Shown here piece by piece: positions 5,264-42,024 of a DNA stretch of 64,000 bases; positions within the stretch are counted from its first letter, which is position 1, and each line of letters opens with the position of its first letter. The notes under the pieces were generated by a model. That model was not told the DNA's origin. It saw only the letters and a program-made list of their open reading frames with translations, and searched no databases. This DNA comes from Candidatus Bathyarchaeota archaeon (lineage in GTDB: Archaea > Thermoproteota > Bathyarchaeia > Bathyarchaeales > DTEX01): positions 576,001 through 640,000 of the forward strand of contig CAVQNT010000002.1 of the NCBI GenBank assembly GCA_963714275.1. Direction: 5' to 3'. Position numbers and translations under genes: made by a program.

Positions 5264-5430
5264 TGCGCCCCAAAATAACAGAACAAATGCGCCGTAAAAC
5301 AGGATAGGTCTACGAAGGCATTATTTGTTATGCAAAATTGAAAATCGGATGTTACACAAATTAGACTGGTCTTAGGCAATGCTGTGTGTTGTTCAAAATG
5401 CCTTTTCAGTTGTTGAACAAATCAGATTAG
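5264..5430 (+). repeat. Six-box dispersed element, copy A (boxes at 5264, 5288, 5326, 5350, 5387, 5411)
   Basis: TGCGCCCCAAAA / TGCGCCGTAAAA / TGTTATGCAAAA / TGTTACACAAAT / TGTTGTTCAAAA / TGTTGAACAAAT; spacings 24, 38, 24, 37, 24. Confidence 0.9.
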
Positions 5431-5534
5431 CCAGAAGAGACATTAATTTATTTTAAAAAAAAATTTGGGCATCAAAAAAGGCTTACACCAGTTTTATATA
5501 GTTTTTTCGTAACAGTCGTTATGAGGCATCCACA

Positions 5535-6240
5535 TTGAACCCGCTGCCAGTTAACAGAGATATGGAGGACCACTTCTTCACGTTGTATAAGCTAGCCGAG
5601 ATGGGTGCCCGAGACAGAAAAATAAAAACCTCAACAAAGTTCCTAGCCGAAAAAATGGGACTTTCGCAGCAGACCGTTTCACGCAGAGCTCATCGAACTC
5701 GAAAGGAAAGGTTTGATACAACGAACAGCCACGCGAGACGGCAGCCTAATCAGCATATCAGAGCTCGGAGAAGCTCAGCTGAAAAAGGTGCGTTCAGGAC
5801 TCAACACGGTCTTCGAGGAAAAAAACCCCGTTTCAGTCACGGTTGAAGGCACAGTCTTTAGCGGAATAGGAGAAGGCGCATACTACGTGACCCGCCCGCA
5901 TTACAGAAAACAGTTTGTGCAGAAGCTCGGGTTCGACCCTTACCCAGGAACCCTCAACATAAAAATCACCAGCGAATACGATGCTAAGATGCGAAGCGAA
6001 CTCGATACATATCCCGGCATAGAAATTTCAGGATACACGAACGAGGACAGAACGTACGGTTCAGGAAAATGTTTCAAAGCCATTATAAACAACAGGGAAA
6101 AAGGCGCCGTGGTTCTTGTGCTGAGAACCCATTACGACAGCTCAGTCATCGAAATCATCGCCCCCACATGCTTACGTGACCGCTTGAAACTGAAAGACGG
6201 GCACAAGGTCAAACTGGAAGTCTTTATCGCTGAATCCTGA
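5535..6240 (+). CDS. ribK: CTP-dependent riboflavin kinase with N-terminal HTH (RbkR type); frameshift near 5690
   Basis: LAEKMGLSQQTVSR HTH; SGIGEGAYY, FDPYPGTLN and RTHY motifs. Confidence 0.92.
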
Positions 6241-6252
6241 ACAGTCAACAAT

Positions 6253-6486
6253 CTACTGTTTCTTTGTCAACTGTACAAGCCGTTTGTCCTTCGCCAACGA
6301 GGAGACAGAGATTAAACCCGTGACCTCCATCTGCATCAAGGTTTTATTGAGATCGTCAAGACCTATTTCCCTGTAAAAAGCCCTCAACACATCGAACAGC
6401 TCACCGTCTGTTATGGATCCTTTTTCCCGAAGAACCTCGATGACCGTCGCATAAATAGGCTGCAGCTTCCACGTGTTTCCAGACAT
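6253..6486 (-). CDS. Small winged-helix protein downstream of CDC48
   Basis: DLNKTLMQMEVTGLISV wHTH pattern. Confidence 0.75.
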   Translation of the reverse strand: MSGNTWKLQPIYATVIEVLREKGSITDGELFDVLRAFYREIGLDDLNKTLMQMEVTGLISVSSLAKDKRLVQLTKKQ

Positions 6487-6508
6487 TACTTAAATATCCT
6501 CCATAAAT

Positions 6509-8693
6509 CTAAGCGACAAGAGGCACTGGCTTCTGAACCTTCCTGACCTGCTTCACGAAGCCCTTGTACCAATTTTCCATGTCAGACGAGATGCTTGGCC
6601 CAATCCTCTTGAGCGCCTCCTGAAAATCAGCATTCGCCACTTCCTTGGCATTCATGTCTTTGCGAAGAGCGTACAGAGCTGCCTCTCTGCATAACGATTG
6701 AATGTCAGCGCCCGAATAACCCTTAGTTAACTGAGCCAGTTCCTGAAGATTCACGTCCTTCACAAGAGGCATACTGTTCGTGTGAATCTTAAGAATCTTC
6801 AGCCTACCCTCCTCGCCGGGTTCAGGAACATAAATCAGCCGATCAAACCTGCCTGGTCTCAAAACTGCTGGATCAACCATGTCAGGTCGGTTAGTAGCAG
6901 TAATTACCACAACATCTTGTAAGGCTGTGATTCCGTCAATCTCCGTAAGAAGCTGACTAATTACACGGTCAGTCACACCACTATCGCCATATCCTGAGCC
7001 TCTTCTAGGCACCAAAGAATCAATTTCGTCGAAGAAGACTATGGACGGAGCTGACATCCTCGCCTTTCTGAAAACCTCTCGGATAGCCTTCTCGGATTCC
7101 CCAACCCACTTAGAGAAAACTTCTGGACCTTTAATCGCTATGAAGTTCGCCTCGCTTTCTGTCGCCACAGCCCTAGCAAGCAACGTCTTACCACAACCCG
7201 GAGGACCAAACAACAGTATCCCTTTAGGTGGCATAATCCCCATTCTTCCGAAAACTTCCGCGTTTTTTAAAGGCCACTCAACAGATTCCCTTCAGCTCTT
7301 GCTTGACTACGTCTAAGCCTCCGACCTCGTCCCAGTGAACCGTCGGAACCTCAATGGCAACTTCCCTCATCGCAGTAGGCGTAATCTCCCTGAAAGCATT
7401 CATGAAGTCGTCCATCGTGACCTCCATCCTTTCAAGAACGCTTGGCGGAATCCTTTCCTGCTCAAGATCGATTTCAGGCAGATACCTCCGCAGCGCCTTC
7501 ATTCCAGCTTCCCGGCTTAAAGCAGCAACATCTGCACCTGTGTACCCATGTGCCATATCAGCTAATTTCTTGAGGTCGACATCTTCAGCGAGATGCATGC
7601 CCCGCGTGTGAACCTGCGTAACCTCGTAGCGTCCATGTTTGTCAGGTATGCCGATCTCTATTTCACGGTCAAACCTACCGGGTCGTCTCAAGGCAGGATC
7701 AAGAGCGTTCGGACGGTTCGTTGCACCAATAACAATCACGTTTCCTCGGCTTGTCAAACCGTCAAGCAGAGCCAGAAGTTGGGCTACTACCCGCCTTTCA
7801 ACTTCACCAGTAACTTCCTCCCGCTTCGGAGCTAAGGAGTCCAACTCGTCAATAAAGATAATTGCTGGAGCGTTCTTCTCAGCTTGCTGGAAGATTTCGC
7901 GGAGCCTCGCTTCAGACTCTCCGTAGAATTTACTCATTATTTCTGGACCGTTGATCGAGAAAAAGTTCGCTTCAGACTCGTTCGCCACAGCCCTAGCGAG
8001 CAACGTCTTACCACAACCCGGAGGGCCATGCAGCAAAACGCCTTTCGGAGGTTCTATCCCGAGCCTTTGGAAAATCTCGGGGTGACGCATTGGCAGCTCA
8101 ACCATCTCTCTAAGCCTTTGAATTTCGTCTTTTAAACCGCCGATGTCCTCATATGTCGTCCGTGGGACTCCGAGTTTGGCTTCAGGGGCTGGTTCAGTAA
8201 GGATTTGGAGATTCGTATCATATGTCAGCCTGAGGATTCCGTGGGGTCTGGTCTTCATCACGGTGAACTGAACGGGGTGACCCAACATCATGACAAGGGT
8301 TGTGTCTCCTTCGATGAATGTTCTTTCCATAAGCCTGTTCTTAACGAAGTTAGTGAAGTCCTCGTCCACGTTAAGGCGCATGTCGATCGGGGCGAGAACA
8401 ATGCTTAAGGCGTCTTTAACCTCAGCTTTTGTAATCACCACAAACTCGTTGATTGAGATGCCAGCATTTTTCCTTGTGAAACCGTCTATCCTAATTATGT
8501 CTCGACCCTGATCTTCAGAGTACGCTGGCCAAGCAATTGCGGATGTCCTTCGTTTTCCGAGAATTTCGATAACATCGCCAGCTGAAACGTTCAGTTTTTC
8601 CATGGTTTTCTGGTCGATTCTGGCAATTCCTCTGGCAACATCTCTTTGTTTGGCATCTCCGACCCTTAGAGAAATTTCAGCCACGTAAGTCAC
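6509..8693 (-). CDS. cdc48: CDC48/VAT AAA+ ATPase; frameshift near 7290
   Basis: Two GPPGCGKT Walker A motifs, IDELD/FDEID Walker B, RPGRFDR; one extra G joins the two ORFs. Confidence 0.97.
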
Positions 8694-8757
8694 CGTCTAA
8701 TAATATTTAAGCATTCTATACATCAAAGGCAAAAAACCTATATAAACGTAGTGAACA

Positions 8758-9030
8758 TCAGACTCTTCTCACCATCAAGGTTTGAAAGTCGCTTATTTTT
8801 TCCATTTTCTTTAAGCACGATTCAACCTCGTCAATACTTCCTTCCCTGTCTTCGGGCACTAGCACATGGGCTATTATTGCGACAAGCCCATATGCTATAG
8901 GTTCCTCTTCGAACTTGTAGACCGAAGCATATTCTGGAAGAGTTGTCTCAATCTCTTTCTTTATAACCTCGCGGTCGAGGTCGATGTCTGAAGGAAAAAT
9001 CTTAAGCGAAACCAAGACTTTCTTAGCCAA
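8758..9030 (-). CDS. ef1b: Translation elongation factor aEF-1beta
   Basis: VLVSLKIFP...EEPIAYGLVAI pattern; 90 aa. Confidence 0.92.
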   Translation of the reverse strand: MAKKVLVSLKIFPSDIDLDREVIKKEIETTLPEYASVYKFEEEPIAYGLVAIIAHVLVPEDREGSIDEVESCLKKMEKISDFQTLMVRRV

Positions 9031-9140
9031 TGTTTATCCTCCTTTAATGGCTTTAAAGAAACCACACAGCTATTTTAAAATTATGTTCTGAAGCCCAAAT
9101 ACCATTACACGAAGAACACAAAGAGCGAAAGAAGTGTTAA

Positions 9141-10292
9141 TCACCTTTTTGGTTCCACGAACTGTGCACAATAGTTTTTCTGTACTGCTTCCTTCAGAAC
9201 AGTCATTGATTTTTTAGCCAATAACGTTCGAAGAACGCCCTTTTCTCCGTAGACTAGTAATGGTTTGCCACCTTTAAGAAGGGTTTCAAAATTACAGGCA
9301 TTAGGCTTAAAATCTTTTTTATGAGACACGTTCCAAACGGAAAGCTCCTGTTCAGGTGGGTTCTTAAGGTACGAAACAAGCATTGTTCGCGGTTCAAAGC
9401 CAAAGTTATCTGCTATATTCTGCCTTGCGAAAGTCAACGACAACAAGTCGCGAGAAGCAAGCACCAACTCTCTTGGTTTCAATAAATCCATGACCGCAAT
9501 GGCGACGTGACCTTGCCCTGGCTCCAACACAAAAACTGAGCCATAGCCGTTCATGCCTTTCAGAACAGAGAACAAACACTGTGTTCCATAACTTAAAGTA
9601 TCAAACTCTGGCAGGCTATAGGCTGTTTTGACCGTGTAAGTTGTTGTAAGATTAAGCTCCATTTCACGTCTCTCGTACTTGTCAACGGGTGGCAAAACCT
9701 TACCGTTAAAGGCAACGTGGCAGATGCAATATCCCTTCTTATCTTCTCTGTAAAGAACACGTACCATTCTATTGTCAAGAATACTGTCCAATTTTCCAGC
9801 AAGTTCGCGAACCACAACCACAGCGAGAACGCCATTATCAGACAAATGATTTGAAGCGCCATAAACGAATGCTGCCAGTCCTTTAGGAGCCATCTTCGCA
9901 GGAAAGTTAGTGGCAATCAAAGAAAAATTGCCCTCAACCTGTTCATAATCTAGATTTGGATAAACACTGACGTCAAGACGGTTCAGGGCTGCGTTGTGTA
10001 ATGCAAAATCCACAGCTAAAGTATCTCGGTCAACCATGTGCACCTCGCGAGAAGGGTCTTGTGCCTTAAGAAAGAGGCCTATTGGTCCGTAGCCGCAGCC
10101 TAGGTCGAGGGTTCTGGAGTAATTTATTGCCTTGTCTTTTCGGAGGCTATTGAGCAACGCCCTTGTGCCTAGGTCGACGGAGAATGAGCTGAACAACGAT
10201 TCGCATAAGTCGAGACGCAGCGAAACCTTACTGAAATTGAAACTCACTCGTTTCTTAATCAGCGTCTTGAAAGCATCATGCTCAGCCGACAA
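9141..10292 (-). CDS. Class I SAM-dependent methyltransferase (MTS/RsmC-like, two domains)
   Basis: FSSFSVDLGTRALL, LDLGCGYGPIG, ATNFP; degenerate second domain (EPGQGH). Confidence 0.85.
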   Translation of the reverse strand: MSAEHDAFKTLIKKRVSFNFSKVSLRLDLCESLFSSFSVDLGTRALLNSLRKDKAINYSRTLDLGCGYGPIGLFLKAQDPSREVHMVDRDTLAVDFALHNAALNRLDVSVYPNLDYEQVEGNFSLIATNFPAKMAPKGLAAFVYGASNHLSDNGVLAVVVVRELAGKLDSILDNRMVRVLYREDKKGYCICHVAFNGKVLPPVDKYERREMELNLTTTYTVKTAYSLPEFDTLSYGTQCLFSVLKGMNGYGSVFVLEPGQGHVAIAVMDLLKPRELVLASRDLLSLTFARQNIADNFGFEPRTMLVSYLKNPPEQELSVWNVSHKKDFKPNACNFETLLKGGKPLLVYGEKGVLRTLLAKKSMTVLKEAVQKNYCAQFVEPKR

Positions 10293-10407
10293 TTTAACTA
10301 CCTTACAATGAGTTACGGACTACTGAAATAAGCGTTTTTAACGCAACAGAATATTTTTCTTTTACAAACGGAATTGGGTTTGAACCATTTCGTTGGCTAG
10401 CTAGGCA

Positions 10408-11007
10408 TTATCGAATTACGATTTCAATGTCGTCAACATAGTAGGTCATTAAGGTTTCCCAGCGAACCGAGATTCCTAAGGCAACCCATACTTCGCCGCC
10501 TGACCCAGTGTTAACGGTGGTTTCAAAACTGTACAGCTTCCAGCCAGCAACTTGGTTAGCGGCACCAAGAACTTCAAGGTCTTCTTCCGTCTCTGGATTG
10601 TTAGCTCTTGAGTAGCCTACGACCGCAGTTATGGTGTTGAAGCTTTCCTCTTCGCTGTAGAGCCAGAATGACACCGTCACCTTAACCTGTACGTTCCTTG
10701 GCGTAACAAAATTTCTTTCTAGCCATAGGGTTCCGTCATCCTGTCTGCCGTCGATGATCAGTTTGATGGTGTATTGACCTGAATGCGTTGTGCCCGTTGT
10801 TCTTGTTATATACCATTCTACTGTTTGGTTGAGATTGTTGGGATCAGGGGGAACGTCAGCGTCGATAACCCAGTCTCCGAACCCGTCCTCAAAGTCTTCC
10901 TTCAACGTAAACGGGTTTAGATACAGCCAAACCTGCCAAGCGCTGAAACTCCCAGCTACAACGAGCACAAGCAAAATGATATAGATGATTTTGCGGTTCA
11001 TTCTCAC
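10408..11007 (-). CDS. Membrane-anchored/secreted beta-sandwich (carbohydrate-binding-like) protein
   Basis: N-terminal TM; EDFEDGFGDW...AHSG-like...YYVDDIEI jelly-roll signature. Confidence 0.7.
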   Translation of the reverse strand: MRMNRKIIYIILLVLVVAGSFSAWQVWLYLNPFTLKEDFEDGFGDWVIDADVPPDPNNLNQTVEWYITRTTGTTHSGQYTIKLIIDGRQDDGTLWLERNFVTPRNVQVKVTVSFWLYSEEESFNTITAVVGYSRANNPETEEDLEVLGAANQVAGWKLYSFETTVNTGSGGEVWVALGISVRWETLMTYYVDDIEIVIR

Positions 11008-11148
11008 AGCTTCATAAACATCAAATAACGAATATTGATACTAGCATTGAGTAAGATAATACTAAATCTTAGAACAATCAACTCGAAGACCGTCCAGAAA
11101 CCAGAACAAAAACAAATTATAATACAGCTGAAAATTACATAAATTTTA

Positions 11149-12384
11149 TTGGATTTCCATCTTGCCATTGAATACAGAAGCATGCGTGAGACAATGAAGA
11201 CCGAAGAAAAAGACATACTGGTAATCGGCGCAGGACCAGCTGGGCTAATCGCTGCCTGTGAAGCTGCAACCAAACAAGCTGACGTCGCAGTCCTAGAGGA
11301 GCATGAGGAAATTGGGAAGCCATGCCACTGCGCAGGATTACTTAGCCTCAGAGGCTTGGAAAGATTAGGTGCGCCTACTGATGGAGCTTATGTTCAGAAC
11401 AAAGTCAAGGGTGCACGCTTCTTCTCGCCCTCAGGATTATCCTTCACTGTCGAAAAAAGCGATCCTGTAGCATGCGTCATAGACCGCAGCATTTTCGACA
11501 GGTTTCTGGCACAAAAAACAGCAGAAGCAGGCGTCCGAATAAGCCTAAATGAACAAGTAAAAGGCATAAAACGCAGCGAAAAAGAAACCGTTATACAATC
11601 AGAAAATAAAAAAATTTATGCAAAGATGGTCATTGACGCTGAAGGCGCGTCCTCGAGGATTATAAAAGACATGGGTTTCAAGCCTATAAACCGCGACTCA
11701 GTTGTTCCAGGGATACAACAGGACCTTGAAAATGTCAGCGTAGACCCCGAATATGTTGAAGTCTATTTTGGCAGCAAGATAGCGCCTAGGTTCTTTGCGT
11801 GGATCATCCCCCTAAGTGAAAACAAGGCAAGAGTCGGCTTAGGATGTAAAGGAGAAAATTCTAAGGAGCACCTTGACGAGTTTGTTAAAAGACATTTTGG
11901 AAACGGATATTATTTGAAGCGTGGTGACGTCCGTTCTGGCTTGATTATAACTGGTGGTCCTGTTGACAGAACTTTTGGCGATCGGTTTCTTGTTGTGGGC
12001 GACGCAGCGGGTCAGGTAAAGCCCACGACAGGCGGAGGAGTCATCCTTGGAGGAATATGCGCTTCAATTGCTGGAAAAATCGCATCTGAAGCTGTTGCCT
12101 GCGGAGATTGTTCTATCTCATTTCTTGGTCGATACGAAACTTTGTGGAAAGACGAGATTGGCAAGGATTTTAGGTCAATGCTGTTAGCTAGAAAGGTTAT
12201 GAATCGCCTTTCTGACCGAGCTATAGACAAGCTCTTCAACATCGTAATAAAAGAGGACCTACAGGGGCTTTCTTCCGCAGAAGGTGATATGGACTTCCAA
12301 AGCAGCGTCATCCTGAAGATGCTTAGGAAAAAAGAGATTCTTGGAGTCTTACCTTCCTTTCTAAGAGCTCTTGTTCCTTTCTAG
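11149..12384 (+). CDS. Geranylgeranyl reductase family flavoprotein
   Basis: IGAGPAG, PCHCAG, FAWIIP, VGDAAGQVKPTTGGG. Confidence 0.93.
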   Translation: MDFHLAIEYRSMRETMKTEEKDILVIGAGPAGLIAACEAATKQADVAVLEEHEEIGKPCHCAGLLSLRGLERLGAPTDGAYVQNKVKGARFFSPSGLSFTVEKSDPVACVIDRSIFDRFLAQKTAEAGVRISLNEQVKGIKRSEKETVIQSENKKIYAKMVIDAEGASSRIIKDMGFKPINRDSVVPGIQQDLENVSVDPEYVEVYFGSKIAPRFFAWIIPLSENKARVGLGCKGENSKEHLDEFVKRHFGNGYYLKRGDVRSGLIITGGPVDRTFGDRFLVVGDAAGQVKPTTGGGVILGGICASIAGKIASEAVACGDCSISFLGRYETLWKDEIGKDFRSMLLARKVMNRLSDRAIDKLFNIVIKEDLQGLSSAEGDMDFQSSVILKMLRKKEILGVLPSFLRALVPF

Positions 12385-12495
12385 CCTCACATCATTTTTT
12401 AATGCCTTTGTTAACCTATTTTTTAAGGCTAGCAGAGAATAGCATATATATGGAAGAATTCTGTAATTATGCCGTTTCGTTTGAGGTGTAGACTG

Positions 12496-12741
12496 ATGAG
12501 TGAAGGCAAAACAGTCTCGATGCCCATGTGCACGTCATGCAACAGAATAATCGGTCCCGGAGCCGAAGCAACGAAGTTTCCATGCCCAAGCTGCGGAGAA
12601 ATCACAATCTGGCGATGCGCCAAATGCCGAGAGTTCAGACGGCTCTACAGATGCCCAAAATGCGGCTTTCAAGGACCTTCAGCTAAGACTTTGCCATTTG
12701 AAATTTTTGGATTCATCCTTTTCTTTTCTTCTTTGCTTTAA
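12496..12741 (+). CDS. Zn-ribbon protein (DUF1610/HVO_2753-like); real stop probably near 12685
   Basis: CTSC...FPCPSCG...RCAKCR...YRCPKCGFQGP; the family normally ends at GP. Confidence 0.88.
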   Translation: MSEGKTVSMPMCTSCNRIIGPGAEATKFPCPSCGEITIWRCAKCREFRRLYRCPKCGFQGPSAKTLPFEIFGFILFFSSLL

Positions 12742-12839
12742 AAACAAATTATATTATTAAAAAAGGAAGGAGCATAATGGACTTCTATTTTTAATAAAGA
12801 AGATCTTCACTCTTTACAGAACAAAGATTTACCAATTTT

Positions 12840-12985
12840 TGCGCCTCAAAACAACAGAACAGGTGCGCCGGCAAAACAGAAAGGATCTTTTTAGGCTGTG
12901 ATTTGTTACACAAATCAGATAGCCGCGAAGACGATACAAAGCGTTGTTCAAAATTAAAACTTGGTTGTTGAACAAAAAAGACTAA
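12840..12985 (+). repeat. Six-box dispersed element, copy B (boxes at 12840, 12864, 12904, 12942, 12966; box 3 absent)
   Basis: TGCGCCTCAAAACAACAGA, TGCGCCGGCAAAACAGA, TGTTACACAAATCAGA, CGTTGTTCAAAA, TGTTGAACAAAA. Confidence 0.9.
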
Positions 12986-13042
12986 GCAGAAACGCTTAAA
13001 CCCGTATAAATAAAGAAGGAAAGCTGGAAAGAAGGCTGGAAG

Positions 13043-14083: not shown

Positions 14084-14131
14084 ATTATCTCTTGCTGCAC
14101 TAAGCCAAAGAAGGCTCCACTTTGACCGTAG

Positions 14132-23723: not shown

Positions 23724-23860
23724 ATTTTTTGCCCTACTTGCATGCTTTATGATAGTGTACTTCCTAACGCGAAGTGTAATTTATTTCAAGTATTCTTGGA
23801 TATATATTCCTTTTTATAAAAAGGGAAACTTTCAATAGGTCGTCGGTTTTCTGTGAGGTT

Positions 23861-23906
23861 ATCTGGTCTGATTTGTGTAACAAGTGAGCTTTTGTTTTGT
23901 GCAACA
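23861..23906 (-). repeat. Dispersed element, copy D (single pair of boxes at 23906 and 23882)
   Basis: TGTTGCACAAAACAAAAGCTCACT followed by TGTTACACAAATCAGACC; 24-bp spacing. Confidence 0.85.
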
Positions 23907-24018
23907 ATACTGGAGCTTATGAAAATTGAACCATTTCAAAGAACGTTTGTTAAGTTGTTTCGGAATAATTTGACCTAATTTGTTATTGGTCTTTTGATCT
24001 CTGGATTACACAGAATCT

Positions 24019-34707: not shown

Positions 34708-34973
34708 CTCTTCTAGAGTTCTCCGATACTCTATGAATCTGCAAAGGTCAACTTATTTCTTTCCAGCTGACTACAGCTTCATCCATTATTCTAGAAACTT
34801 TCTCTCGATTTATTCATAGAAATATTGTGGGCAACTGAAACAGTTTGCGTGTCAACATTACCTTAATATGCGACGGAAACGTGTGGTTTCAGCTTGTTAA
34901 CAGACGTAAAAACAGTAAAAGTTTTACAATGACCAAAACCATGTCTTATGGAGAGAGTTTGGCACGACCATAA

Positions 34974-35875
34974 ATGCAAAGCTTGTTGACGAGATACAGA
35001 AACTGAAACAGGAGAAACAGGCAGTCATTCTCGCACACAACTACCAACGTCCAGAGATTCAGGACATAGCAGATTACGTTGGCGACAGCTTGGAGCTTTC
35101 GGTGCGTGCTGCTGAGACGGACGCTAAGATGATTGTTTTCTGCGGAGTAACGTTCATGGCTGAAACAGCTACCATCCTCAACCCAAACAAGAAGGTTTTG
35201 ATACCAGACCTGAACGCTCTTTGTCCGATGGCTGCAATGTTGCCAGCTGAACTTGTTAAGGTTTATCGAAAAGAAAATCCAGGTTCAAGAATTGTTCTCT
35301 ACATTAATACTTTGGCAGAGGCGAAGGCTGAGTGCGACGCTGTTTGCACCTCTGCGAACTCGGCTGAAATTGTGAACAAAATGGACTCGGACAATGTCAT
35401 CTTTGGTCCTGACGCAAACCTCGCCCATTACACTCAAAATTTCACCAAAAAACATTTGGTTAACATGCCAGCCTTCGGTTTTTGTCCCATTCACAAACTC
35501 TTCAACAAAGAAGATATTTTGAGACTGAAGAAGCTTCATCCTGACGCTGAGGTTTTGGTTCATCCAGAATGCAATCCTGAAGTCTGCGGAGTGGCCGATT
35601 TTGTTGGAAGCACGTCTAAAATGTGCAGGAAAGCGAAGGAGTCTTCAGCTAGAAAGTTCATTGTGGCAACGGAGATTGGCATAATTCATAAAATGCAGGC
35701 TAACCGAAAAGACGCGGTGTTTATTCCTGCTTACGACGAGGCGATATGCGTAAACATGAAGCTGCACACTCTTGAGAAGCTTTACCTTTCGTTGAAGAAT
35801 GAGCGTTACGTCGTGAAAGTCCTAGCCGACACAGCGAACAGAGCCCGAAAAGCGCTCGAAATCATGCTCAAATAA
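34974..35875 (+). CDS. nadA: Quinolinate synthase (5' end frameshifted)
   Basis: ILAHNYQ..EIQD.AD..GDS upstream of the 35090 ORF; FCGV.FMAE, CPMA, HPEC, GSTS, C..MK. Confidence 0.95.
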
Positions 35876-35971
35876 GCCTCTAAATAAAAAGAAGGCGAAT
35901 AAGCTAGGTTAACATCAAGGCACATTTATTTCTTTGTGTGTTAAAAACGAGAACTATTGCTCAGTCTTCAC

Positions 35972-36139
35972 TTGGTCTGTTTTGTTCAACATCTGGAAGT
36001 GTATTTTGAACAACATACTGCTTTGTCTTAGACCTGTCTGTTTTGTGTGACATTAGAATTTTCCGTTTGAATGACAAACCGCGACCTGTGAAGGCCTGAT
36101 CTGTTTTGTGGCGCATTATCTCTGTTGTTTTGGGGCGCA
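35972..36139 (-). repeat. Six-box dispersed element, copy C (boxes at 36139, 36115, 36076, 36052, 36015, 35991)
   Basis: TGCGCCCCAAAAC / TGCGCCACAAAAC / TGTCATTCAAAC / TGTCACACAAAAC / TGTTGTTCAAAA / TGTTGAACAAAAC; spacings 24, 39, 24, 37, 24. Confidence 0.92.
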
Positions 36140-36239
36140 AACATAGACTAATGTTTTTTTCTGTGATGTATGTAAATTTTTATTTTTTGAATGAAAAAGG
36201 GGGATATTGTACGCGGAATTTTCTTCGGATTATTGGAGG

Positions 36240-36521
36240 CTACATTGTTCTGTCAAGAACGTAGTAGAACACGGTGGAGAAGGCTTCGATTATGATTACT
36301 GCTGCGATTGAACCGACGATTTGGCCTGTTGAGAAATAGGTTACTAAAAGTGCCACAGGGTCAACGACTAGTCTATATAACAAAGTTTTTTTGACTGAAA
36401 TCCTGCGTGGACGGTTGGAAATTGGCGGGACATCAACACCACACTCTGTAAGACAAGACCTATTGTTTAAAGCATGGTATTTAAGTTTTTCAGCTTCTGA
36501 ACCCGTGAAAGGCGCATTCAA
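36240..36521 (-). CDS. Small membrane protein, DUF2061-like (true start probably near 36435)
   Basis: R.SVKKTLLYR.....TG....S......VFYY..DR pattern. Confidence 0.6.
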   Translation of the reverse strand: MNAPFTGSEAEKLKYHALNNRSCLTECGVDVPPISNRPRRISVKKTLLYRLVVDPVALLVTYFSTGQIVGSIAAVIIIEAFSTVFYYVLDRTM

Positions 36522-36526
36522 TGCTG

Positions 36527-37825
36527 TTAAGGCTGCTTACGCTCTTTTTCTCCAATAGGTCTTGAGGCAAAGAATGGAGGTTTACCTTGAAATCCTTTTG
36601 CCGCCATCTCCTTGTGGATTTTTTGCCATTCGCGGCGTGTCAGGCGGTGTCGAGGAGCCAGATGCTTGCTCAGTGCCTGCATGAAGGCTTCTGTGTCAGG
36701 GGGGCAGCCGGGAACGAATGTTCCTTGAAGTTTGTTGAAGAAGGTTGGGGCGAGACAGTTGCCGCAGAGTATACAGGCTGAGTCTTCTTCCAGAGGAGTC
36801 GGCGGCTTGGCTTCAGGACCCATGAGTACGTACAGCTTCGTTTTCGCAGAGTTTATTTCGTGTCTTTGCAGCAACACGGTGGCGAGACGGCCATAGCAGC
36901 CTGTGCAGGCACCTTCGTTGATTATTTTGACCTTTTCGCTTTCTTTGTTAATGAAGTCGACCATGTTCACTGTTTTCGCTCGGAAAGCCTCCTCAATCGT
37001 CAACCCCAGAATCTGATGTTTTTCAATTTCGGATGAGCCTAAGCCGTGTTCTTCTGCCCACCTTAGGTAGCGTAACGCCTTCGGGTCTGCCCCCATTATC
37101 TTTGCTGCGACAGCATCAACTAAAACCGCGTTGTCTCCCGCCATGGTAAGGTCCATTTTCTGCACCTCGAATGCTGGCCAGTGATGGGTTGAGAAGCCTC
37201 CGTCGACCACGACTAGGCTGCTTGGTTTAACGAGGTTCAGGTCCACAATGATTTCTTCGATTCTGTCAGATTGGTGGTAGTTGATGCGGTCCTGCAGCTC
37301 GAGGACGCCGTAAAGGTTTTTGATGGCAACAGTCACACCGACCAAATGATGGGTCTTTAACGTTCCTGCATTGATCAATATGTCGCATTCCACTAATTCT
37401 TTTGCGACCTTCACCTTCTCGAAGAAAACTGGATTCTTAACATTAACCTCGATTCGGGGGCTTCGTCCAAGATCGACCCATTCACCCCCCTCTTCTCTGG
37501 CGATTTTGGCAACAGCATCATACAACGTCATGTCCCAAGAGGTGACAGCGTCGCCGACCAAAATCTGCGAGGCTCCAGCTGACTTCGCTAACTTCACCAA
37601 GGTGCGGATGGTTTCAGGATGAACCGTTTCTCCGGTCTCGTAGGGGCTGCCATCAACAAGGTTCGCTTTGATGAGAACCTTGTCGCCTTTCTTGACGAAT
37701 CTTTCTATGCCGCCAATCAGTTGGACAGCTTTGGTTACACGGTTTACGATGTTTTCTCCCCTAACAATCGAAACTGAATATTTTTCGGGCCCCATCTTTC
37801 TGGGTGACGTTTCTTGGTGGGACAT
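36527..37825 (-). CDS. DUF362 family Fe-S protein
   Basis: KVLIK.NL, LKTH....T.AIKNLYG, ACTGC, CGNC, VPGCPP. Confidence 0.88.
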   Translation of the reverse strand: MSHQETSPRKMGPEKYSVSIVRGENIVNRVTKAVQLIGGIERFVKKGDKVLIKANLVDGSPYETGETVHPETIRTLVKLAKSAGASQILVGDAVTSWDMTLYDAVAKIAREEGGEWVDLGRSPRIEVNVKNPVFFEKVKVAKELVECDILINAGTLKTHHLVGVTVAIKNLYGVLELQDRINYHQSDRIEEIIVDLNLVKPSSLVVVDGGFSTHHWPAFEVQKMDLTMAGDNAVLVDAVAAKIMGADPKALRYLRWAEEHGLGSSEIEKHQILGLTIEEAFRAKTVNMVDFINKESEKVKIINEGACTGCYGRLATVLLQRHEINSAKTKLYVLMGPEAKPPTPLEEDSACILCGNCLAPTFFNKLQGTFVPGCPPDTEAFMQALSKHLAPRHRLTRREWQKIHKEMAAKGFQGKPPFFASRPIGEKERKQP

Positions 37826-37908
37826 GTTTGGTCAGGCAGGTTTTTTTGTGGAACCTTGATTTGGCTTACGTGAATTTTGTGGCAATTTTTTTTTCTTTGA
37901 TCCTTTTT

Positions 37909-39106
37909 TTAGTTGAAGAAGTCTTCGTCTCCTTCAGGTAGGTGTTTCCTTGCGGCTTTTTCGTTAAATTCGACACCCATGCCTGGTTTGTCCCAGACTT
38001 CTATGAATCCGTTTTTCACCACGGGATTCGGAAGGCCTTCGACTATGTCGTACCACCACTCTGGTCTCCCAATCGGGTATTCGAAGGCAATGTAGTTTTT
38101 AGGTAATGTTGCTGACATGTGAACGAGAGCTGCGAGCCCAAACAGCCCGTTGAAGACGCCGTGCGGAGCCACGAGGATTCCGTGAAGGTCAGCGTACTCA
38201 GTCTGTCCATTTGAGTTCCGCTATGCCGCCTATGTCGCAGGGGTCTGGACCAATTATGTGAACAGCGTGTTTTTCGATGACATCCTTGAAGTTTTGTCTG
38301 AGGTAAATTTGTTCGCCAGTGTGGATGTTGGTGCTCGTGGAACGGGTGACCTCGCGGTAAACATCAGCTAAAGTATAAGGCGTGTAGTCGCCCGTGATCA
38401 TGTCTTCAAGCCACATCACGTTCAATGGCTCCAAAGCCTTGGCGAACTTGATTGCTGAAGGCACGACCCATCCTGGTCCGCAGTCTAAGGCGAGACCCAC
38501 ATCGTCCCCTAAAACGTCTTTCATTGCTTTTACGCATGCTATAATGTGTTTCAGTCCGCTTTCGGTTAAAAGCCCGCGGCTTATGTACGGTGAACCATTG
38601 TCGACTTCGCCGTAGAAAAAGTTGGGAACCACTGTGTGCATTCCTGCGTGGAAGCCGACGGGTTGCTTTATGATTGTGAAACCCTCTTTCGCATCCTTCA
38701 TTTTCCGCATGACTTCAGCGTAGTCTTCTGGAGAATTTCCTTTTATCGGAAACCTTACTCCGCCGTTGTAGACGCGGACTTTGTCTCGGATTTTTCCTCC
38801 CAAAAGCTTGTAAACTGGTAACCCAGCGGCTTTTCCAGCCAAGTCCCATAGTGCCATTTCGATTGCGCTTACTGCGCTTCCCCAGGGTTTGTAGCTTCCC
38901 AGCTTTCGGATTCTGAGCATCACTCTTTCGATGTTGGTGGGGTCTTGCCCCAGAATGTACGGTTTGTAAAAGAGTACGTGAGGTTTTATGTAGGTTTTTG
39001 GGGATTCGATTTCTCCGATTCCACTTATGCCTTCGTCGGTTGTTATGCGGATAACGGGATTCTGTCCTATGATGGTGCATTTCAGGTCGGTTATTTTCAT
39101 GTCCAT
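37909..39106 (-). CDS. Mandelate racemase/muconate lactonizing enzyme family protein; frameshift near 38200
   Basis: SAIEMALWDLAGK, LLGGK.RD, WLED, TGE, APH, PGMGVE. Confidence 0.9.
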
Positions 39107-39251
39107 TCCAGCCTCAATTAAACAGGTTGGAGAAGCATATGTTGACCTTGTATTTCATTTTTGCCCTTACCCGTTTTATAAAGAAACATGTGAAGACAAA
39201 AAAACAGTTTTTATCTTCAAAAATAACATTGATTGTTAACTTTCAAACTGC

Positions 39252-40631
39252 TTATTCCACGTATTTGTAGTATCTGTAGCCCAAGTCGTTTTCATTTATG
39301 CCGATGCTGTTTAGGGCGAACTCTTCTTTTGGCGAAATGATGCTTTCGTTGAGCTTCCGTCTTCCTTCATGCAGATCCTCGTAAACATCAATCGGTATCT
39401 TTTGCCGTTTGTTAAGTTTGTGTATGAGCTTAATTTTTTCTAAAACTTCCTTGTATTTAGGCTGGACAATGAAGCTGCACACGATTGCGCTGCTTCCGCT
39501 GCCATAGGAGCCTATGCCGATCCGTTTGCCTGTTAAGTCGTCTTTTCGGGTTTCGAAGTGGCTTGTGACGCCTAGCCAGACAGAAGCAGTGTATGAGTTG
39601 CCAATAAGGCAAATCGCCTTTAACGAATCCGCAACCTTCTTGTCGTATTCTGTTGTAAAGTCTTCGGTGTTCGTAAAGTTCTTTCTGTAATCCTTGTAGC
39701 CGTCGGAAATGTAGAACTCCATGTCAGCCAATTTTTCCCTGCTAGGCTCAGGACCTATCGTTTGCGCGATTCTGTTCCATTTAGGAAGGTTTCTCCAGTC
39801 GTGAATTAGGAAAGACGCGAAGGCGTACTGAACCATCTTCGGAAACGGCGCGTGAAAAGACACTATGTCTATTTTGTCTATCAAGCTTTCAGCGGGAGAC
39901 TTTAAAACTCCAGCCTTCAGCATGCTTTTTCTATAAAAATCCGTAGCAATCCTCATGTCTCTCAGGTAACAGCCCACAGAATATTGCCCGTTAAACACGG
40001 CTGTTGCCCTTTCGACGGGTCTGAAGAAGTCATGGTCATCCACGGTTCCAAACCCCGTGAACTGAGGCTCATACGCAAGGAGCCGTGGGTTCTCTTTCAA
40101 AAGTAGGGCGATTGCGGCTGCACCCTGAGTCGGTTCACCTGATGAGTTTAGCTCGTACTTTGCGATGTCCGTGGCGACCACGATTGAGTAAGGTGCTCTG
40201 TTCCAGCCTGAGGCAATGTAGGCTAGACGGTCAATCATGGCGTAGGTTGCGCCAACGCATGCGAACTTCGTTTCGGGTGCTCCGATGTGGTCTAAACTGC
40301 CTTTTCCATACCTTAGCTCCAGCATACCTTGCACGTAGCACGAGATGGGTTTCGCGGCATCAGGACCTGATTCGGTGGCGATGTGGATAAAGTCGATGTC
40401 TTTTGGCTGCAGGTTGTTCTTTTCCATAAGCTTCAAGGCAGCCATGGCAGCCATCGTTACTGCGTCTTCGTGGGCGTCGGGGATTGAAAGTTTGTCTATG
40501 CCTAGCCCTTTGGAAAATTTTTCAGGCGGCACACCTCGGGCTTTAGCCATGTCTCCTGCGTCTAGGTACAACTTAGGGATGTATGTGGCGATGTCGTCGA
40601 TGCCAACCGTTTTCTGCAAAGGGCTCACCAA
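39252..40631 (-). CDS. mvaS: Hydroxymethylglutaryl-CoA synthase, long bacterial/haloarchaeal type
   Basis: ATES..D.AK, KFACVG, DIAKY, EPTQGA, FHAPF, GNSYTAS, SYGSG. Confidence 0.9.
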   Translation of the reverse strand: MVSPLQKTVGIDDIATYIPKLYLDAGDMAKARGVPPEKFSKGLGIDKLSIPDAHEDAVTMAAMAALKLMEKNNLQPKDIDFIHIATESGPDAAKPISCYVQGMLELRYGKGSLDHIGAPETKFACVGATYAMIDRLAYIASGWNRAPYSIVVATDIAKYELNSSGEPTQGAAAIALLLKENPRLLAYEPQFTGFGTVDDHDFFRPVERATAVFNGQYSVGCYLRDMRIATDFYRKSMLKAGVLKSPAESLIDKIDIVSFHAPFPKMVQYAFASFLIHDWRNLPKWNRIAQTIGPEPSREKLADMEFYISDGYKDYRKNFTNTEDFTTEYDKKVADSLKAICLIGNSYTASVWLGVTSHFETRKDDLTGKRIGIGSYGSGSSAIVCSFIVQPKYKEVLEKIKLIHKLNKRQKIPIDVYEDLHEGRRKLNESIISPKEEFALNSIGINENDLGYRYYKYVE

Positions 40632-40711
40632 ACATGGAATGCTAAAGTGGACTACAAGTTAAATGAATTCTGAATATAATGTTTTCTGGAAGCTCCGTTT
40701 ATTGTTGGGGG

Positions 40712-41879
40712 TCACATAATTTTGCCGTTTTTCATGATTTTCTGTTTCGTATCCGCCCTTTCTATGGTCGCCGTGGGATGGGTGACGAAGTCCCAGTGCA
40801 TGCTTGAGATCGAGGTTCCTCCGTAGCTGAGGTTGGAGCCGAATGCGAGGTGAACTGAGCCTCCGATCTTCTCGTCTGTGAGTATGTACCCTATGGCTTT
40901 GTTGATGGCTGGGTTGCAGCCTATGCCGAGCTCAGCAATATTCGTTGTCCGAACCTCTTTCTCTTTGCTGTCGATTTCGAGGCAACGTTTGAAGGAGTCG
41001 ATCATCTGGTCTCCGTTAACCTTCGCGGTGCACTCGTCCAGAAGCAGCTCTGCCATTCTTGAAGTGCAACGTGACGTCTTTGACGATCTTGTTCGTGAAC
41101 CTGTCTATTGTGACTGGACAAAACAGCGCCCCGTCGCCGAAGGTTTCGTAGGGCGCAATGAAAAGTTCGCCAGCAGGCAGGTTGTTACCCAGATCGCCGA
41201 CTTTAATGTCGTGATCGTCAACCAAGCCATCATCCTCGTTCAATCGGCGCCCCCTAATTCGGCACGTGAAGTCTGAGCCCTTATCGTCCGTTATGTGAAG
41301 AACGTCAGCGCCTTTCAGGAGCTCCGCAAGCCTCGAAGTGTTCTGTTTCAGGGTTGAAGTGGGAACCGCCATGCCTTCCACGATCAGCTGTTCAAGGTTC
41401 TCGTAGTCCACGTCATAGAAACTCGCAGCTTCCTGCGTCGGCCAGCCTGCGTAGGTCCATTTTTTGCCGGGTCCCCCATCTTCGCCGTAAAGGATTTTCC
41501 TTATCGGTACGTTGGCTTCGGTTCGGGCTGCGATTTTTTCGGGCGGAAAACGGGTTTGGACTGCGGGGTCCTTGAAGGGTTCAACCGTTATGTAGACGTC
41601 GGCTTCTTTTATGGCTCCCAAATAGTGCTTGGGCGTGACCTTCAGCGTTTTTTCGGGTATCTCGTCGTAGACTCGGGCTGAGTACTCGTCGGTGGACGCC
41701 ATTATGATCGGTTGGGCGCCTTTGCGATAGCACAGTATACCGATTTCTTCGAGTAGTTCTTGTGTGTGGGTGCCTCCTCGAATGATGACTGCTTCGCCTC
41801 TCTTGAGGTTCATGCCGTCAATGATTGCCTCGGCGCATTTTTGTATCTTTTCCTTCGTGATCATCCTAAACATCACCAA
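40712..41879 (-). CDS. Aminopeptidase, M29/thermophilic metalloprotease family; frameshift near 41050
   Basis: NLPAGELF, ELGIGCN, DEKIGGSVHLAFG, HWD. Confidence 0.88.
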
Positions 41880-41981
41880 TCTGGATCATTGAAGACTGCA
41901 AATTCTTTTATACTTTGATTATTCATCGCTGCGTGTAACTATTTAACATCTATCTAAAATTTCTTTGCACAACCACCAGAT

Positions 41982-42024
41982 ACATCTGATTTGTGTAACA
42001 ATAGAGTTTTCCGTTTGCATAACA
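41982..42024 (-). repeat. Dispersed element, copy E (single pair of boxes at 42024 and 42000)
   Basis: TGTTATGCAAACGGAAAACTCTAT followed by TGTTACACAAATCAGA; close to the middle pair of copy C. Confidence 0.88.

Follow-up and report, generated by a model that had tools for sequence, protein, structure and literature searches.

A 2.64-Mb Bathyarchaeia genome carries a family of dispersed intergenic arrays whose units share a core of 46-52 bp that is, by sequence comparison, homologous to a module lying in frame within a viral gene, a homology that is a new finding here. The gene putatively encodes a small terminase (TerS), and the viral module is most likely the site where this protein docks to start pac-type headful packaging. 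Since the host arrays are copies of a module carried in a viral probable small-terminase gene, they may be places where the viral packaging machinery docks on the host chromosome.

An intergenic array family

The window, that is the whole 64-kb stretch of DNA analysed, belongs to the genome referred to here as G000. An earlier note had described five intergenic copies of a repeated element in it, and all five were recovered at the same positions, with no further copies found in the 64-kb window. Copy 1 (5261..5445, + strand) holds units A-B-C, with box starts at 5264/5288 (A), 5326/5350 (B) and 5387/5411 (C), and is flanked by a DUF4097 gene and a riboflavin-kinase gene; its orthologues have 5 units in the sister genome G002 and 3 in G004. 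Copy 2 (12837..13000, + strand) comprises an A pair (12840/12864), a lone B box (12904) and a C pair (12942/12966), the first box of which, read by eye, starts with CG instead of TG. A Zn-alcohol-dehydrogenase gene lies downstream, and orthologous arrays are found in G002 and G004, with none in G001. Copy 3 (23848..23909, - strand) is a single B unit with boxes at 23906 and 23882, preceded by a degenerate A-like module of ~110 nt that reaches ~24000. Copy 4 (35957..36142, - strand), again with units A-B-C (box starts 36139/36115, 36076/36052 and 36015/35991, respectively), occupies the convergent gap between nadA and a 93-aa ORF; fold excess is absent on both strands, and the orthologous array in G002 differs in unit content. 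Copy 5 (41966..42027, - strand) is a single B unit with boxes at 42024 and 42000, a peptidase M29 gene downstream and a G002 orthologue of 2 units. The 10 neighbouring ORFs scanned in the window belong to housekeeping or uncharacterised families, or to none.

The 21 boxes of the window make up 10 pairs and the lone B box of copy 2. As previously claimed, box starts are 24 bp apart in 10/10 pairs, nine of them found by regular expression and the tenth, the C pair of copy 2, read by eye. From the second box of a pair to the next first box the gap is 37-39 bp (40 bp to the lone box), and the unit period of ~62 bp is confirmed. The pattern TG-N5-CAAA-N13-TG-N5-CAAA has 7 matches in the window, compared with 0.01 expected from 100 shuffles, and genome-wide the 24-bp period yields 92 matches, with 17-40 for any of the other periods between 19 and 30.

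A genome-wide profile scan, as proposed in the earlier note, was carried out with the 62-bp unit and gave 133 matches at E<1 and 97 at E<1e-3. These form 74 clusters, 61 of which contain at least one unit at E<1e-3 and are referred to here as arrays. None of the 61 lies inside an ORF of 150 aa or more; they are intergenic, with random orientation. Convergent gaps (12/61 arrays) as well as divergent ones hold them, and they are therefore not promoter elements. The spacing between arrays is irregular (median 19 kb, CV 0.97), so that nothing suggests headful-sized spacing. With regard to unit order, the fixed A-B-C sequence claimed by the earlier note proves to be a preference: the 61 arrays include ABC (8), BC (7) and single B (16), as well as CAB (2), ACB (1), BCB (1), BB (2), BBC (2) and others.

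The units, ~62 bp long, share the architecture TG-core-CAAA, 13 nt, TG-core-CAAA-W-CAGA, which forms the 46-52-bp module. Mean column conservation within unit types is 0.88-0.97 for the boxes and 0.84-0.88 for the WCAGAC tail, falling to 0.68-0.78 for the 13-nt inner spacer and 0.49-0.60 for the linkers, which bears out the observation that linkers have diverged while boxes are kept. In their core sequences, the two boxes of a unit are alike at 4.05/6 positions, compared with 2.94 for shuffled partners (max 3.39 in 2000 shuffles; 64 in-register units). Their complementarity (3.73 versus 4.00 with shuffled partners) is not above the shuffled value; the inverted repeat noted earlier in the third pair is real in G000 and is not a general property, the first C box being variable in sister genomes, e.g. 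TGTTGGTC. No support was found for a structured RNA, with no fold signal (z -0.53 and -0.73) and no Rfam match to the arrays. The arrays are a real, lineage-restricted intergenic family with shared architecture and conservation. The view that it is not a described element holds, with no match to the arrays or the module in GenBank phage records, and none in Rfam or the literature searched.

A module in a putative viral small-terminase gene

The viral counterpart of the module, found in tailed viruses of Bathyarchaeia, lies in frame within a gene of ~145 aa whose architecture comprises a helix-turn-helix (HTH), a disordered linker and a coiled coil. The gene is directly upstream of a large-terminase gene and is therefore a putative small terminase, an assignment made from gene position and architecture; at L053 and G002:C4 the adjacent gene has PF03237/PF17289 and phrog_2 terminase large-subunit matches. 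Direct searches with the putative TerS gave a sub-threshold Myb match only in Pfam (E 0.005, 17.7 bits versus a cut-off of 27), no match in PHROGs and no PDB match below E 0.1 with Foldseek, where a known TerS appeared at rank 33 (E 3.4); of 349 relatives found, the 120 listed include no protein named for terminase or packaging.

Searches by protein similarity, which made no use of the DNA pattern, placed relatives at 9 loci in GTDB and 64 in metagenomes, and the 6 viral-contig matches of a DNA-pattern scan of IMG/VR are located in such genes. The module, with the peptide pattern Q-x7-Q, is found at 53 loci in 32 distinct versions. Its two boxes are 8 codons apart in the disordered linker, alike within a virus and differing between viruses, and many of them are 11-12-bp palindromes with TTG...CAA arms, in our reading of the module list. 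In an AlphaFold model the module codes for disordered residues 51-67 (pLDDT below 50), in a segment between a three-helix HTH and long helices. The module occupies the same position in TerS genes that are only 36-60% identical, which argues that it is ancestral in TerS and not a sporadic insertion.

The two boxes of the viral module co-vary, their cores agreeing at 3.75/5 positions versus 1.80 for shuffled partners (max 2.75); in 8/32 distinct modules the cores differ at at least 3/5 positions. Furthermore, the boxes change together with the third helix of the N-terminal HTH. In all four bins of C-terminal identity, recognition helices resemble each other more in TerS pairs that share a core than in those whose cores differ (0.79/0.48, 0.63/0.48, 0.63/0.42 and 0.90/0.59, respectively), the pairs compared not being independent of each other. 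Helix and boxes are ~10 codons apart, and block recombination of the N-terminal part would give the same association. Co-variation of box with box and of box with helix is what a docking site for a pac-type terminase usually shows, and because both are seen here the module is most likely the TerS docking site for headful packaging.

Host arrays as possible chromosomal mimics of packaging sites

The TerS gene of G002 matches host arrays across the module only (query 206-262), and its module is identical to host array L005 at 46/46 nt; the host units have no TerS flank on either side. In G000, a unit and the TerS module closest to it are identical at 32.3/46 positions on average, compared with 18.6 for reversed modules (max 23) and 15.7 for random 46-mers (max 25). 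The maximum of 38 is shared by three units, one of which, matching L195, is the unit of window copy 5. Different host unit types match different viral types (A, APQ; B, VTQ; C, VGQ/VEQ): the A core is found in TerS L170, B-like cores occur in TerS L195 and L112 and the VTQ...VTQ peptide in protein P0118, and type C is present in the TerS of G002 itself. The same pattern recurs in other host genomes. A non-coding copy in G033 is identical to the TerS module of that genome over 47 nt, and G038 has 4 non-coding single units between housekeeping genes, of which L051 differs from the G038 TerS module at 2/45 positions by our own count and the other three differ more. G414 contains 4 extra copies of its own TerS type and 3 of a second type. 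As the G000 units are only 70-83% like known viral modules, a current viral partner is hypothetical for this genome, which has no TerS with the module and only module-less, mostly decayed TerS-like copies.

The explanation that we favour, tentatively, is that the host arrays are chromosomal mimics of viral packaging sites. The host modules would be binding sites for the terminase of viruses that infect the cell or are induced, and packaging would then start on host DNA. This could divert capsids, as a decoy effect, and/or transduce host DNA together with the arrays into other cells. Arrays would stack modules of several viral specificities, and recombination among modules with a common scaffold, those of viral or proviral TerS genes included, would add, remove and renew units, a process for which a transposase would not be required. 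A comparison with empty orthologous loci, suggested by the earlier note, did not yield a clean filled/empty site pair, and no mechanism seeding a new locus was seen. The earlier proposal of a selected multi-site protein-binding array fits these data, with boxes and spacing conserved, linkers drifting and arrays retained at orthologous sites in two sister species; the part of that proposal which gives way concerns the binder, likely a viral small terminase and not a host chromosome-organising or regulatory protein.

Sister genomes and alternative explanations

A less likely alternative is that the module is a short selfish repeat, dispersed in the manner of REP/BIME or MITE elements, that serves neither host nor virus and owes its spread and its uniformity to recombination and gene conversion; the viral linker would then be either the source of the module or another landing place that is tolerated. 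The many intergenic copies in random orientation agree with this, as do several further features. By BLAST, the family is present in only 3/7 genomes of the genus, not being found in the other 4/7 or in the other genera searched. The mosaic of units differs between orthologous arrays, B cores have species-specific flavours, and arrays coincide with synteny breakpoints. In G414 the module is carried inside a larger repeat. Against a selfish origin, the place of the module in divergent TerS genes is ancestral and not sporadic, and changes in the boxes go with changes in the recognition helix. Terminal inverted repeats and a fold excess are both absent, and the genome has no PF01609/PF00665 match. 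Moreover, the G002 loci orthologous to window copies 1, 2, 4 and 5 hold arrays, as do the G004 loci orthologous to copies 1 and 2, and boxes and spacing are kept there despite flanking genes that are only 73-89% identical.

It is improbable that the arrays serve a host DNA-binding protein in chromosome organisation or regulation, with viruses having copied its site into TerS to recruit the host factor, for which the IHF site in the cos region offers a parallel. Conserved boxes with fixed 24-bp and ~62-bp spacing do resemble protein docking, retention at orthologous sites is in keeping with it, and the palindromic viral boxes would suit dimeric binders. However, at least 3 core types occur in one genome, and more in relatives, so that a single host protein could not read all of them; the cores track the viral helix, the family is missing from the BLAST results for most of the genus, and the use of convergent gaps speaks against promoter elements. 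G000 has one TerS-like gene that is both solitary and intact (C7:215249-215731); no orthologue of it exists in G004, and its only match in G002 is the viral TerS, at 28% identity.

An action at the RNA level, in which read-through transcripts of the arrays would be antisense RNAs or decoys against the TerS mRNA of several viruses, has a similarly low probability. The 46/46 nt identity between the G002 TerS gene and a host unit would allow it, stacked viral types would provide several targets, and arrays lie in both orientations relative to neighbouring genes. Nevertheless, the flanks left of the first box are unalignable and no conserved upstream promoter was found in them, there is neither a structure signal nor an Rfam family, and G000 units reach just 70-83% identity to known TerS modules. 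In the host, conservation is lower in the 13-nt spacer than in the boxes, and box-reading by a protein therefore fits better than pairing over 46 nt.

Still less probable is that viral or other integrases use the units as attB sites or landing pads, the corresponding attP being within the TerS gene. This would account for the identity of virus and host over a 46-47 nt core, and tRNA genes are close to two of the G038 units; in G002, two arrays have additional 2.3-2.5 kb blocks on their 5' side, blocks that carry no second unit at their far end. Proximity to tyrosine recombinases, which the earlier note had advised checking, is found for 2/14 matches passing the family cut-off, at ~600 bp from an array, and we estimate that ~0.7/14 would lie that close by chance. 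The TerS gene is intact in G002:C4 though the genes beyond TerL are non-viral, and the lack of a TerS flank on host units again disagrees with integration.

Finally, stacked ends or landing pads of a DDE transposon (IS21, IS481 or Tn7/Mu-like), which the earlier note had considered since the boxes start with TG and are repeated in direct orientation, are very improbable and largely refuted by the absence of PF01609/PF00665 matches from the whole genome and of a transposase among the 10 window neighbours scanned, the random orientation without paired inverted ends, the retention of arrays at orthologous sites and the homology of the units to a viral coding segment.

Comparison with known systems

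The REP/BIME elements of enterobacteria are dispersed, intergenic and lineage-specific mosaics, built from a small number of unit types joined by typical linkers, and are hot spots of recombination. The arrays resemble them in all these respects. However, REPs are palindromic hairpins linked to the RAYT transposase, while the host units consist of two direct boxes, show no fold excess and are homologous to part of a viral gene. The uptake sequences of Haemophilus and Neisseria (USS/DUS) are 9-12-bp words, produced by mutation, that function in transformation. Under the transduction reading only, the arrays would likewise be genome-wide signals that bias a DNA-transfer machine to self DNA and are spread thereby; the host modules, at 46-52 bp, would need copying, and the machine would be a viral terminase. 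PICIs carry cos/pac modules, and such satellites are discrete islands with their own genes. Both cases would involve non-viral DNA bearing the address label of the packaging machinery of a helper virus, but the labels here are naked arrays between housekeeping genes and not gene-bearing islands.

With regard to the viral copy, P1 has its pac in pacA and P22 in gene 3. A close likeness is to SPP1/SF6, which have repeated boxes in or at the gene of an HTH protein beside the large terminase, with an N-terminal domain that is HTH-like, as in Myb/TRF (PMC4737164). The isolated DNA-binding domain of SF6 TerS is reported to have bound pac DNA without sequence preference, so direct repeats near terS genes are not always read specifically (PMC4737164). 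The archaeal putative TerS differs in belonging to an unannotated family with no significant match to known TerS, and in the exact 8-codon distance between its two boxes, which lie in a disordered linker; its binding is predicted.

For the host copies, a close parallel is found in Salmonella, where pac-like chromosomal sequences direct P22 packaging and 'could become selected' (PMC11260489; PMC10996546). These pseudo-pac sites are host sequences that resemble the phage's own pac and start packaging of host DNA there, and they amount to nine to eleven single short sites resembling one phage (PMC11260489; PMC10996546). The arrays described here, by comparison, belong to an archaeon and number 61, with ~100 units that are copies of a 46-52-bp module and stack several specificities, packaging from them being predicted.

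Architecture and composition of the arrays

All five array copies that the earlier note had reported in the window were found in their places, and the spacing of exactly 24 bp between box starts holds in ten out of ten pairs, nine of them matched by a regular expression and the tenth, a C pair in copy 2 with CG at the start of its first box, read directly. The unit can be written as TG-N6-AAA, 13 nt and TG-N6-AAA-W-CAGA, with 37-39 bp between successive pairs and 40 bp ahead of the lone B box in copy 2. A stricter pattern, TG-N5-CAAA-N13-TG-N5-CAAA, has seven matches in the window against 0.01 expected from shuffles, and across the genome that contains the window (G000; an assembly of 2.64 Mb in 10 contigs, 91% complete, with the window at C2:576001-640000) box pairs are matched 92 times at the 24-bp period, compared with 17-40 times at each other period from 19 to 30. 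A unit profile built from 58 seed units, used for the genome-wide scan that had been proposed, returned 133 matches at E<1 and 97 at E<1e-3. These matches form 74 clusters, and the 61 with at least one unit at E<1e-3 are treated here as arrays, none of which lies inside an ORF of at least 150 aa (0/61). That the arrays constitute a real family is practically certain.

Three main unit types are distinguished by their cores, which read TGCGCC in type A, TGT[TC]ACAC in type B, and TGTTGTTC followed by TG[TA]TGAAC in type C. Among the 61 arrays, 16 consist of a single B unit, eight are ABC, seven BC, four C and two CAB, and ACB, BB, BBC and other compositions also occur. The order A-B-C is therefore a preference and not a rule: it is the commonest multi-unit order, but the fixed order that had been claimed does not hold. 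Within types, conservation is highest in the boxes (0.88-0.97) and the tail (0.84-0.88), intermediate in the inner 13-nt spacer (0.68-0.78) and lowest in the linkers (0.49-0.60), which bears out the view that linkers have diverged while boxes were kept. The inverted repeat previously seen in the C pair was over-read, in that the feature is not general, and a general hairpin of box 1 with box 2 can be discarded because their complementarity is not above that of shuffled partners. The arrays share with dispersed repeats of the MITE or REP/BIME type the mosaic of few unit types in many intergenic copies; neither the terminal inverted repeats nor the stable palindromic hairpin of such repeats was found in the arrays, whose ends carry no inverted repeats. 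Regular, headful-like spacing of the arrays is ruled out by a CV of 0.97.

Ahead of the single B unit of copy 3 (window 23910-24000, minus strand) there is a conserved module of about 110 nt, which also precedes B units at no fewer than ten other loci of the same genome, for example C2:553411, C2:328341, C6:118823 and C6:159940. It looks like a decayed A unit with a further upstream block starting with a motif like cccagaaaccaac, and its presence before many single B units points to a distinct subfamily of the element.

A viral gene that carries the module

Across 401 genomes of the class, the pattern TG-N5-CAAA-N13-TG-N5-CAAA-W-CAGA was matched 43 times in G000, 104 times in the sister genome G004 and a small number of times in other families of the same order, while the reversed pattern had no match in any of the 401. 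In three further Bathyarchaeia genomes (G357, G033 and G038) the match lies in frame inside an ORF of about 145 aa, and the next gene downstream of this ORF encodes terminase large-subunit domains (PF03237, E 6e-17; PF17289; phrog_2, E 1e-47). The ORF with the module stands directly upstream of a PF03237/PF17289 gene, in the position of a pac site, both at locus L053 and in the sister genome G002, where the family member occupies C4:41140-41562 and adjoins that gene. Protein similarity alone places the family at 64 metagenome loci and 9 GTDB loci, each of the latter carrying the label Bathyarchaeota or Bathyarchaeia. Scanning IMG/VR for the DNA pattern yielded six matches within such genes, and a second IMG/VR scan, directed at the clade nearest the G002 gene, yielded four loci, at least three of which were on contigs already found.

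The AlphaFold model of the protein (mean pLDDT 77) places an N-terminal bundle of three helices ahead of two long helices, with residues 51-67 disordered in between, and it is exactly this disordered stretch that the module encodes. The N-terminal part has only a sub-threshold Myb/SANT match in Pfam. A known TerS DNA-binding domain has been described as superposing on the Myb domain of TRF1 (PMC4737164). For the protein, no match was found in PHROGs or in GenBank phage records, and nothing below E 0.1 was returned by Foldseek against the PDB. It has 349 relatives, which make up a viral family without annotation; the 120 listed are unnamed, hypothetical or carry scattered unrelated labels, and no Pfam domain fitting an architecture of HTH, linker and helices was found among those listed. 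Neither the gene nor the repeats are mentioned in passages of a paper on Bathyarchaeia viruses (PMC10848311). On account of the adjoining large terminase (TerL), its size and its HTH-linker-helices build, the protein is regarded here as a putative small terminase (TerS).

With regard to G000 itself, no TerS gene with the module was found, only module-less TerS-like copies that are mostly decayed. One relative of 162 aa, solitary and without the module, is intact (C7:215249-215731; loci L143/L213); its neighbour, in a translation read by eye, resembles glutamate dehydrogenase, and there is no terminase gene near it. This gene was considered as a host partner of the arrays and rejected on its phyletic pattern, since it has no counterpart in G004 and its only match in G002 was the viral TerS, at 28% identity. 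Decayed copies lie at C6:348923-349312, C2:333676-333975, C6:505719-506012 and C2:284083-284473, one of them upstream of an ORF that, also read by eye, resembles a large terminase and has a Walker-A-like motif.

Homology between host units and viral modules

It is highly probable that the host array family is homologous to the viral module. When the G002 TerS gene is compared with host arrays, the match is confined to the module (query positions 206-262) and reaches 46 identical positions out of 46 in one G002 array (L005). Many host arrays end in a tail, CAGACCAGTCGAA, which corresponds in the same gene to the codons after the module. When each G000 unit is set against the viral module that it matches best, 32.3 of the 46 positions agree on average (maximum 38), compared with 18.6 (maximum 23) for reversed modules and 15.7 (maximum 25) for random genomic 46-mers. 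Each unit type has viral counterparts: type A in the TerS of locus L170, there with a 21-nt period, type B in loci L195 and L112 and in the VTQ...VTQ protein P0118, and type C in the TerS of G002. The arrays thereby have the likeness to a virus pac region by which a pseudo-pac site is recognised, provided that the module is the pac site.

Non-coding copies also occur elsewhere in the class. G038 has four single units between housekeeping genes, one of which (L051) differs from the module of its own TerS at two of 45 positions by manual count, the other three differing more. In G033, a non-coding copy and the genome's own TerS module are identical over 47 nt, and a further unit belongs to another viral type; the complete chromosome of G414 has four extra copies of its own TerS type and three of another type. 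In G414 the modules (C1:101860, 300744, 440663, 1209573, 186677, 217150 and 542038; L227-L239) are embedded in a larger dispersed repeat that is bounded by a motif like tatgttgaaaacagt and occurs in both orientations, and this repeat is a different carrier of the same module.

Co-variation of the boxes with the putative recognition helix

The viral module, which encodes Q-x7-Q, was collected from 53 loci in 32 distinct versions, and the 5-nt cores of its two boxes are identical in 17 versions, differing at one position in four, at two in three and at three or more in eight. Agreement between the two cores averages 3.75 of 5 positions; with shuffled partners it averages 1.80 and does not exceed 2.75 in 2000 shuffles. 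Between viruses the cores vary widely, even where the rest of the protein is more than 80% identical. When 35 distinct sequences were compared and their pairs sorted into four bins by C-terminal identity, the identity of the third HTH helix in same-core and different-core pairs was 0.79 and 0.48, 0.63 and 0.48, 0.63 and 0.42, and 0.90 and 0.59, respectively. At the extremes, different-core pairs with C-terminal parts 96-98% identical have helices only 38-62% identical, and same-core pairs with C-terminal parts 40-49% identical have helices 62-85% identical. The boxes hence change together with the TerS helix, an observation whose weight is limited by physical linkage (helix and boxes lie about 10 codons apart) and by the non-independence of pairs that share ancestry.

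The association of the same core with a similar helix is the pattern expected of a protein that reads boxes in its own gene. Known pac sites have been described as containing direct repeats at the small-terminase gene (PMC4737164), and the viral module resembles them in that its repeated boxes lie in the putative TerS gene. The module is a probable DNA site of the viral family of about 145 aa, and we lean slightly towards its being the recognition site of the terminase.

Distribution and turnover of the arrays

A BLAST search with copy 4 detected the array family in three of 41 related genomes, namely G000, G002 (28 matches) and G004 (27 matches). All three belong to one genus of seven genomes, and the same search did not find the family in the 34 genomes of other genera. 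Arrays occupy the orthologous sites of copies 1, 2, 4 and 5 in G002 and of copies 1 and 2 in G004; at the site of copy 3, G002 has contig ends, and in G004 the match extends into the array region. In G001, a genome without the family, the sites of copies 1, 2 and 4 carry no array. Flanking genes are 73-89% identical, yet at these orthologous sites the boxes and their spacing have been kept, whereas the complement of units has changed: in G000 copy 1 has the composition A-B-C, against five units in G002 and three in G004, and the G002 orthologue of copy 4 has one extra unit. Arrays also mark rearrangements, as two G002 array loci have flanks that map beside different G000 arrays.

Two extra blocks of 2.3-2.5 kb in G002 (C19:11962-14362 and C118:1586-4121; L045/L048 and L027/L030) lie exactly 5' of the arrays orthologous to copies 5 and 2, so that arrays coincide with differences in gene content. 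One block has an ORF that reads by eye like a TrmB-type regulator, together with an unknown ORF; the other encodes membrane or secreted proteins and is common to G004.

At the copy 1 site, ahead of the same riboflavin-kinase gene, genomes without the family carry another conserved intergenic sequence, rich in A and C (L023 from G001, 1190-1440; L024 from G005, 1240-1480), in which a ccacag motif recurs and TATA-like boxes occur; the niche of copy 1 may here be taken by another repeat family. The riboflavin-kinase gene itself (window 5535-6240) appears as two overlapping ORFs in different frames, 5535-5846 without a Pfam match and 5713-6240 with PF01982, and its upstream part is kept at the DNA level in G001 and G005. 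Such a reading could come from a frameshift, an error in sequencing or the fusion of an N-terminal domain.

Proposed role of the arrays

The analysis has shown how the arrays are built, that their boxes and spacing are constrained, that they are homologous to the viral module, and that this module co-varies with the viral helix. Building on this, we propose tentatively, at somewhat under even confidence, that the host arrays act as pac mimics. On this view the viral small terminase would dock at the module, and when a virus infects the cell or is induced, its terminase would bind the host arrays. A box pair with its 24-bp spacing could accommodate two HTH domains of one oligomer, and the period of about 62 bp, or about six helical turns, would place further sites with other specificities along one face of the double helix. 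Once the terminase has docked, packaging would begin on host DNA, and the result could be a decoy effect, high-frequency transduction carrying arrays to new cells, or both. Recombination between modules with a common scaffold, including those in TerS genes, might add, remove and renew units, which would fit the 46/46 identity in G002, the changing unit content of orthologous arrays and the synteny breaks.

A fuller scenario, in which chromosomes are seeded with stacked packaging sites of several virus lineages that serve decoy defence, transducing spread and an arms race, is rather unlikely as a whole. According to it, the terminase of a replicating virus would dock on the arrays and package host DNA, lowering viral yield; the virus would become a high-frequency transducer of host segments, and arrays would spread in the population as DNA uptake sequences do. 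Viruses could escape by a joint change of core and recognition helix, and hosts could reply with new unit types, an arms race that would explain both the fast-evolving TerS cores and the A-B-C stacks of the host.

Alternative explanations

The strongest competitor, to which we give about one chance in four, is that the arrays are a purely selfish repeat. It explains their mosaic build, patchy distribution and association with rearrangements, but leaves the ancestral, helix-linked module in TerS genes unexplained. An array bound by a host protein and copied by viruses is improbable, because one genome holds many core types.

An antisense or decoy RNA is equally improbable, given that the arrays have neither promoter nor fold and that the spacer is less conserved than the boxes. 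The Rfam search that had been suggested gave no match at gathering score across the window, which also has no tRNA or tmRNA genes, and copy 4 shows no fold excess over shuffles (z -0.53 and -0.73 on the two strands); on these three results a structured non-coding RNA was rejected. The sequence left of the first box cannot be aligned among copies, so the arrays have no promoter in common. With ORFs of at least 150 aa, the 61 arrays lie in 22 divergent and 12 convergent gaps and in co-directional gaps in 14 sense and 13 antisense orientations; on the convergent cases, together with the equality of sense and antisense, a promoter or upstream-activating element was rejected. The ten neighbouring ORFs scanned in the window belong to housekeeping or uncharacterised families (including DUF4097, CTP-dependent riboflavin kinase, Zn-alcohol dehydrogenase, NadA, DUF362 and peptidase M29) or have no match.

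Attachment sites (attB/attP) are still less probable, because TerS is intact in an integrated context (in the one integrated locus examined, on G002:C4, with non-viral genes beyond TerL) and host units lack TerS flanks. G000 has 18 tyrosine-recombinase matches, 14 of which pass the family cut-off, and the suggestion that copies might abut such genes found little in its favour: two of the 14 are near an array, at about 600 bp, where an estimated 0.7 would be expected by chance. Five tyrosine-recombinase genes of G000, at C2:557968, C6:369715, C2:431079, C5:16532 and C2:242976, are paralogues of 406-426 aa, which indicates that several elements of a single kind have integrated into this genome.

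Lastly, ends of a DDE transposon (IS21, IS481/IS1202 or Tn7/Mu-type), stacked as the earlier note had envisaged, are essentially excluded by the absence from G000 (91% complete) of matches to PF01609 and PF00665, which as controls matched 9 and 6 of 14 reference genomes, respectively, and of any transposase among the ten neighbouring ORFs. Array orientation in G000 is random, with no pattern of paired inverted ends. A comparison of filled and empty sites led from G002 array loci to G000 loci that also have arrays or to synteny breaks, with no clean pair, and the two candidate indels, from which insertion boundaries or target-site duplications might have been read, could not be aligned.

Comparison with known systems

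The impression that the arrays correspond to no described element has persisted, as nothing was found in the literature, Rfam or GenBank phage records, the last of which gave no match to the array sequence. Bathyarchaeia are abundant, uncultured and without a genetic system, and if the pac-mimic reading holds, theirs would be, to our knowledge, the first cell genome with a large, organised set of viral packaging signals. The arrays would then make gene transfer and antiviral strategy in this group concretely testable, and unit types would be sequence markers by which, without recourse to CRISPR spacers, hosts in metagenomes could be tied to virus lineages. Even if the arrays should prove to have no function, an unannotated viral protein family has been singled out and its probable DNA site identified.

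The nearest described things include BIMEs, which are mosaic intergenic repeats, and uptake sequences. Pac sites have been described within or at terS genes (PMC4737164), and pac-like sequences that P22 uses are reported from the Salmonella chromosome as nine to eleven single sites, with selection suggested (PMC11260489, PMC10996546). The pac-mimic reading, if true, would extend the recent idea of selectable pac-like sites in host chromosomes (PMC11260489). Compared with the nearest described systems, the Bathyarchaeia family consists of copied modules and not of chance resemblances, its arrays stack several viral specificities, it is far more numerous, and it occurs in archaea.
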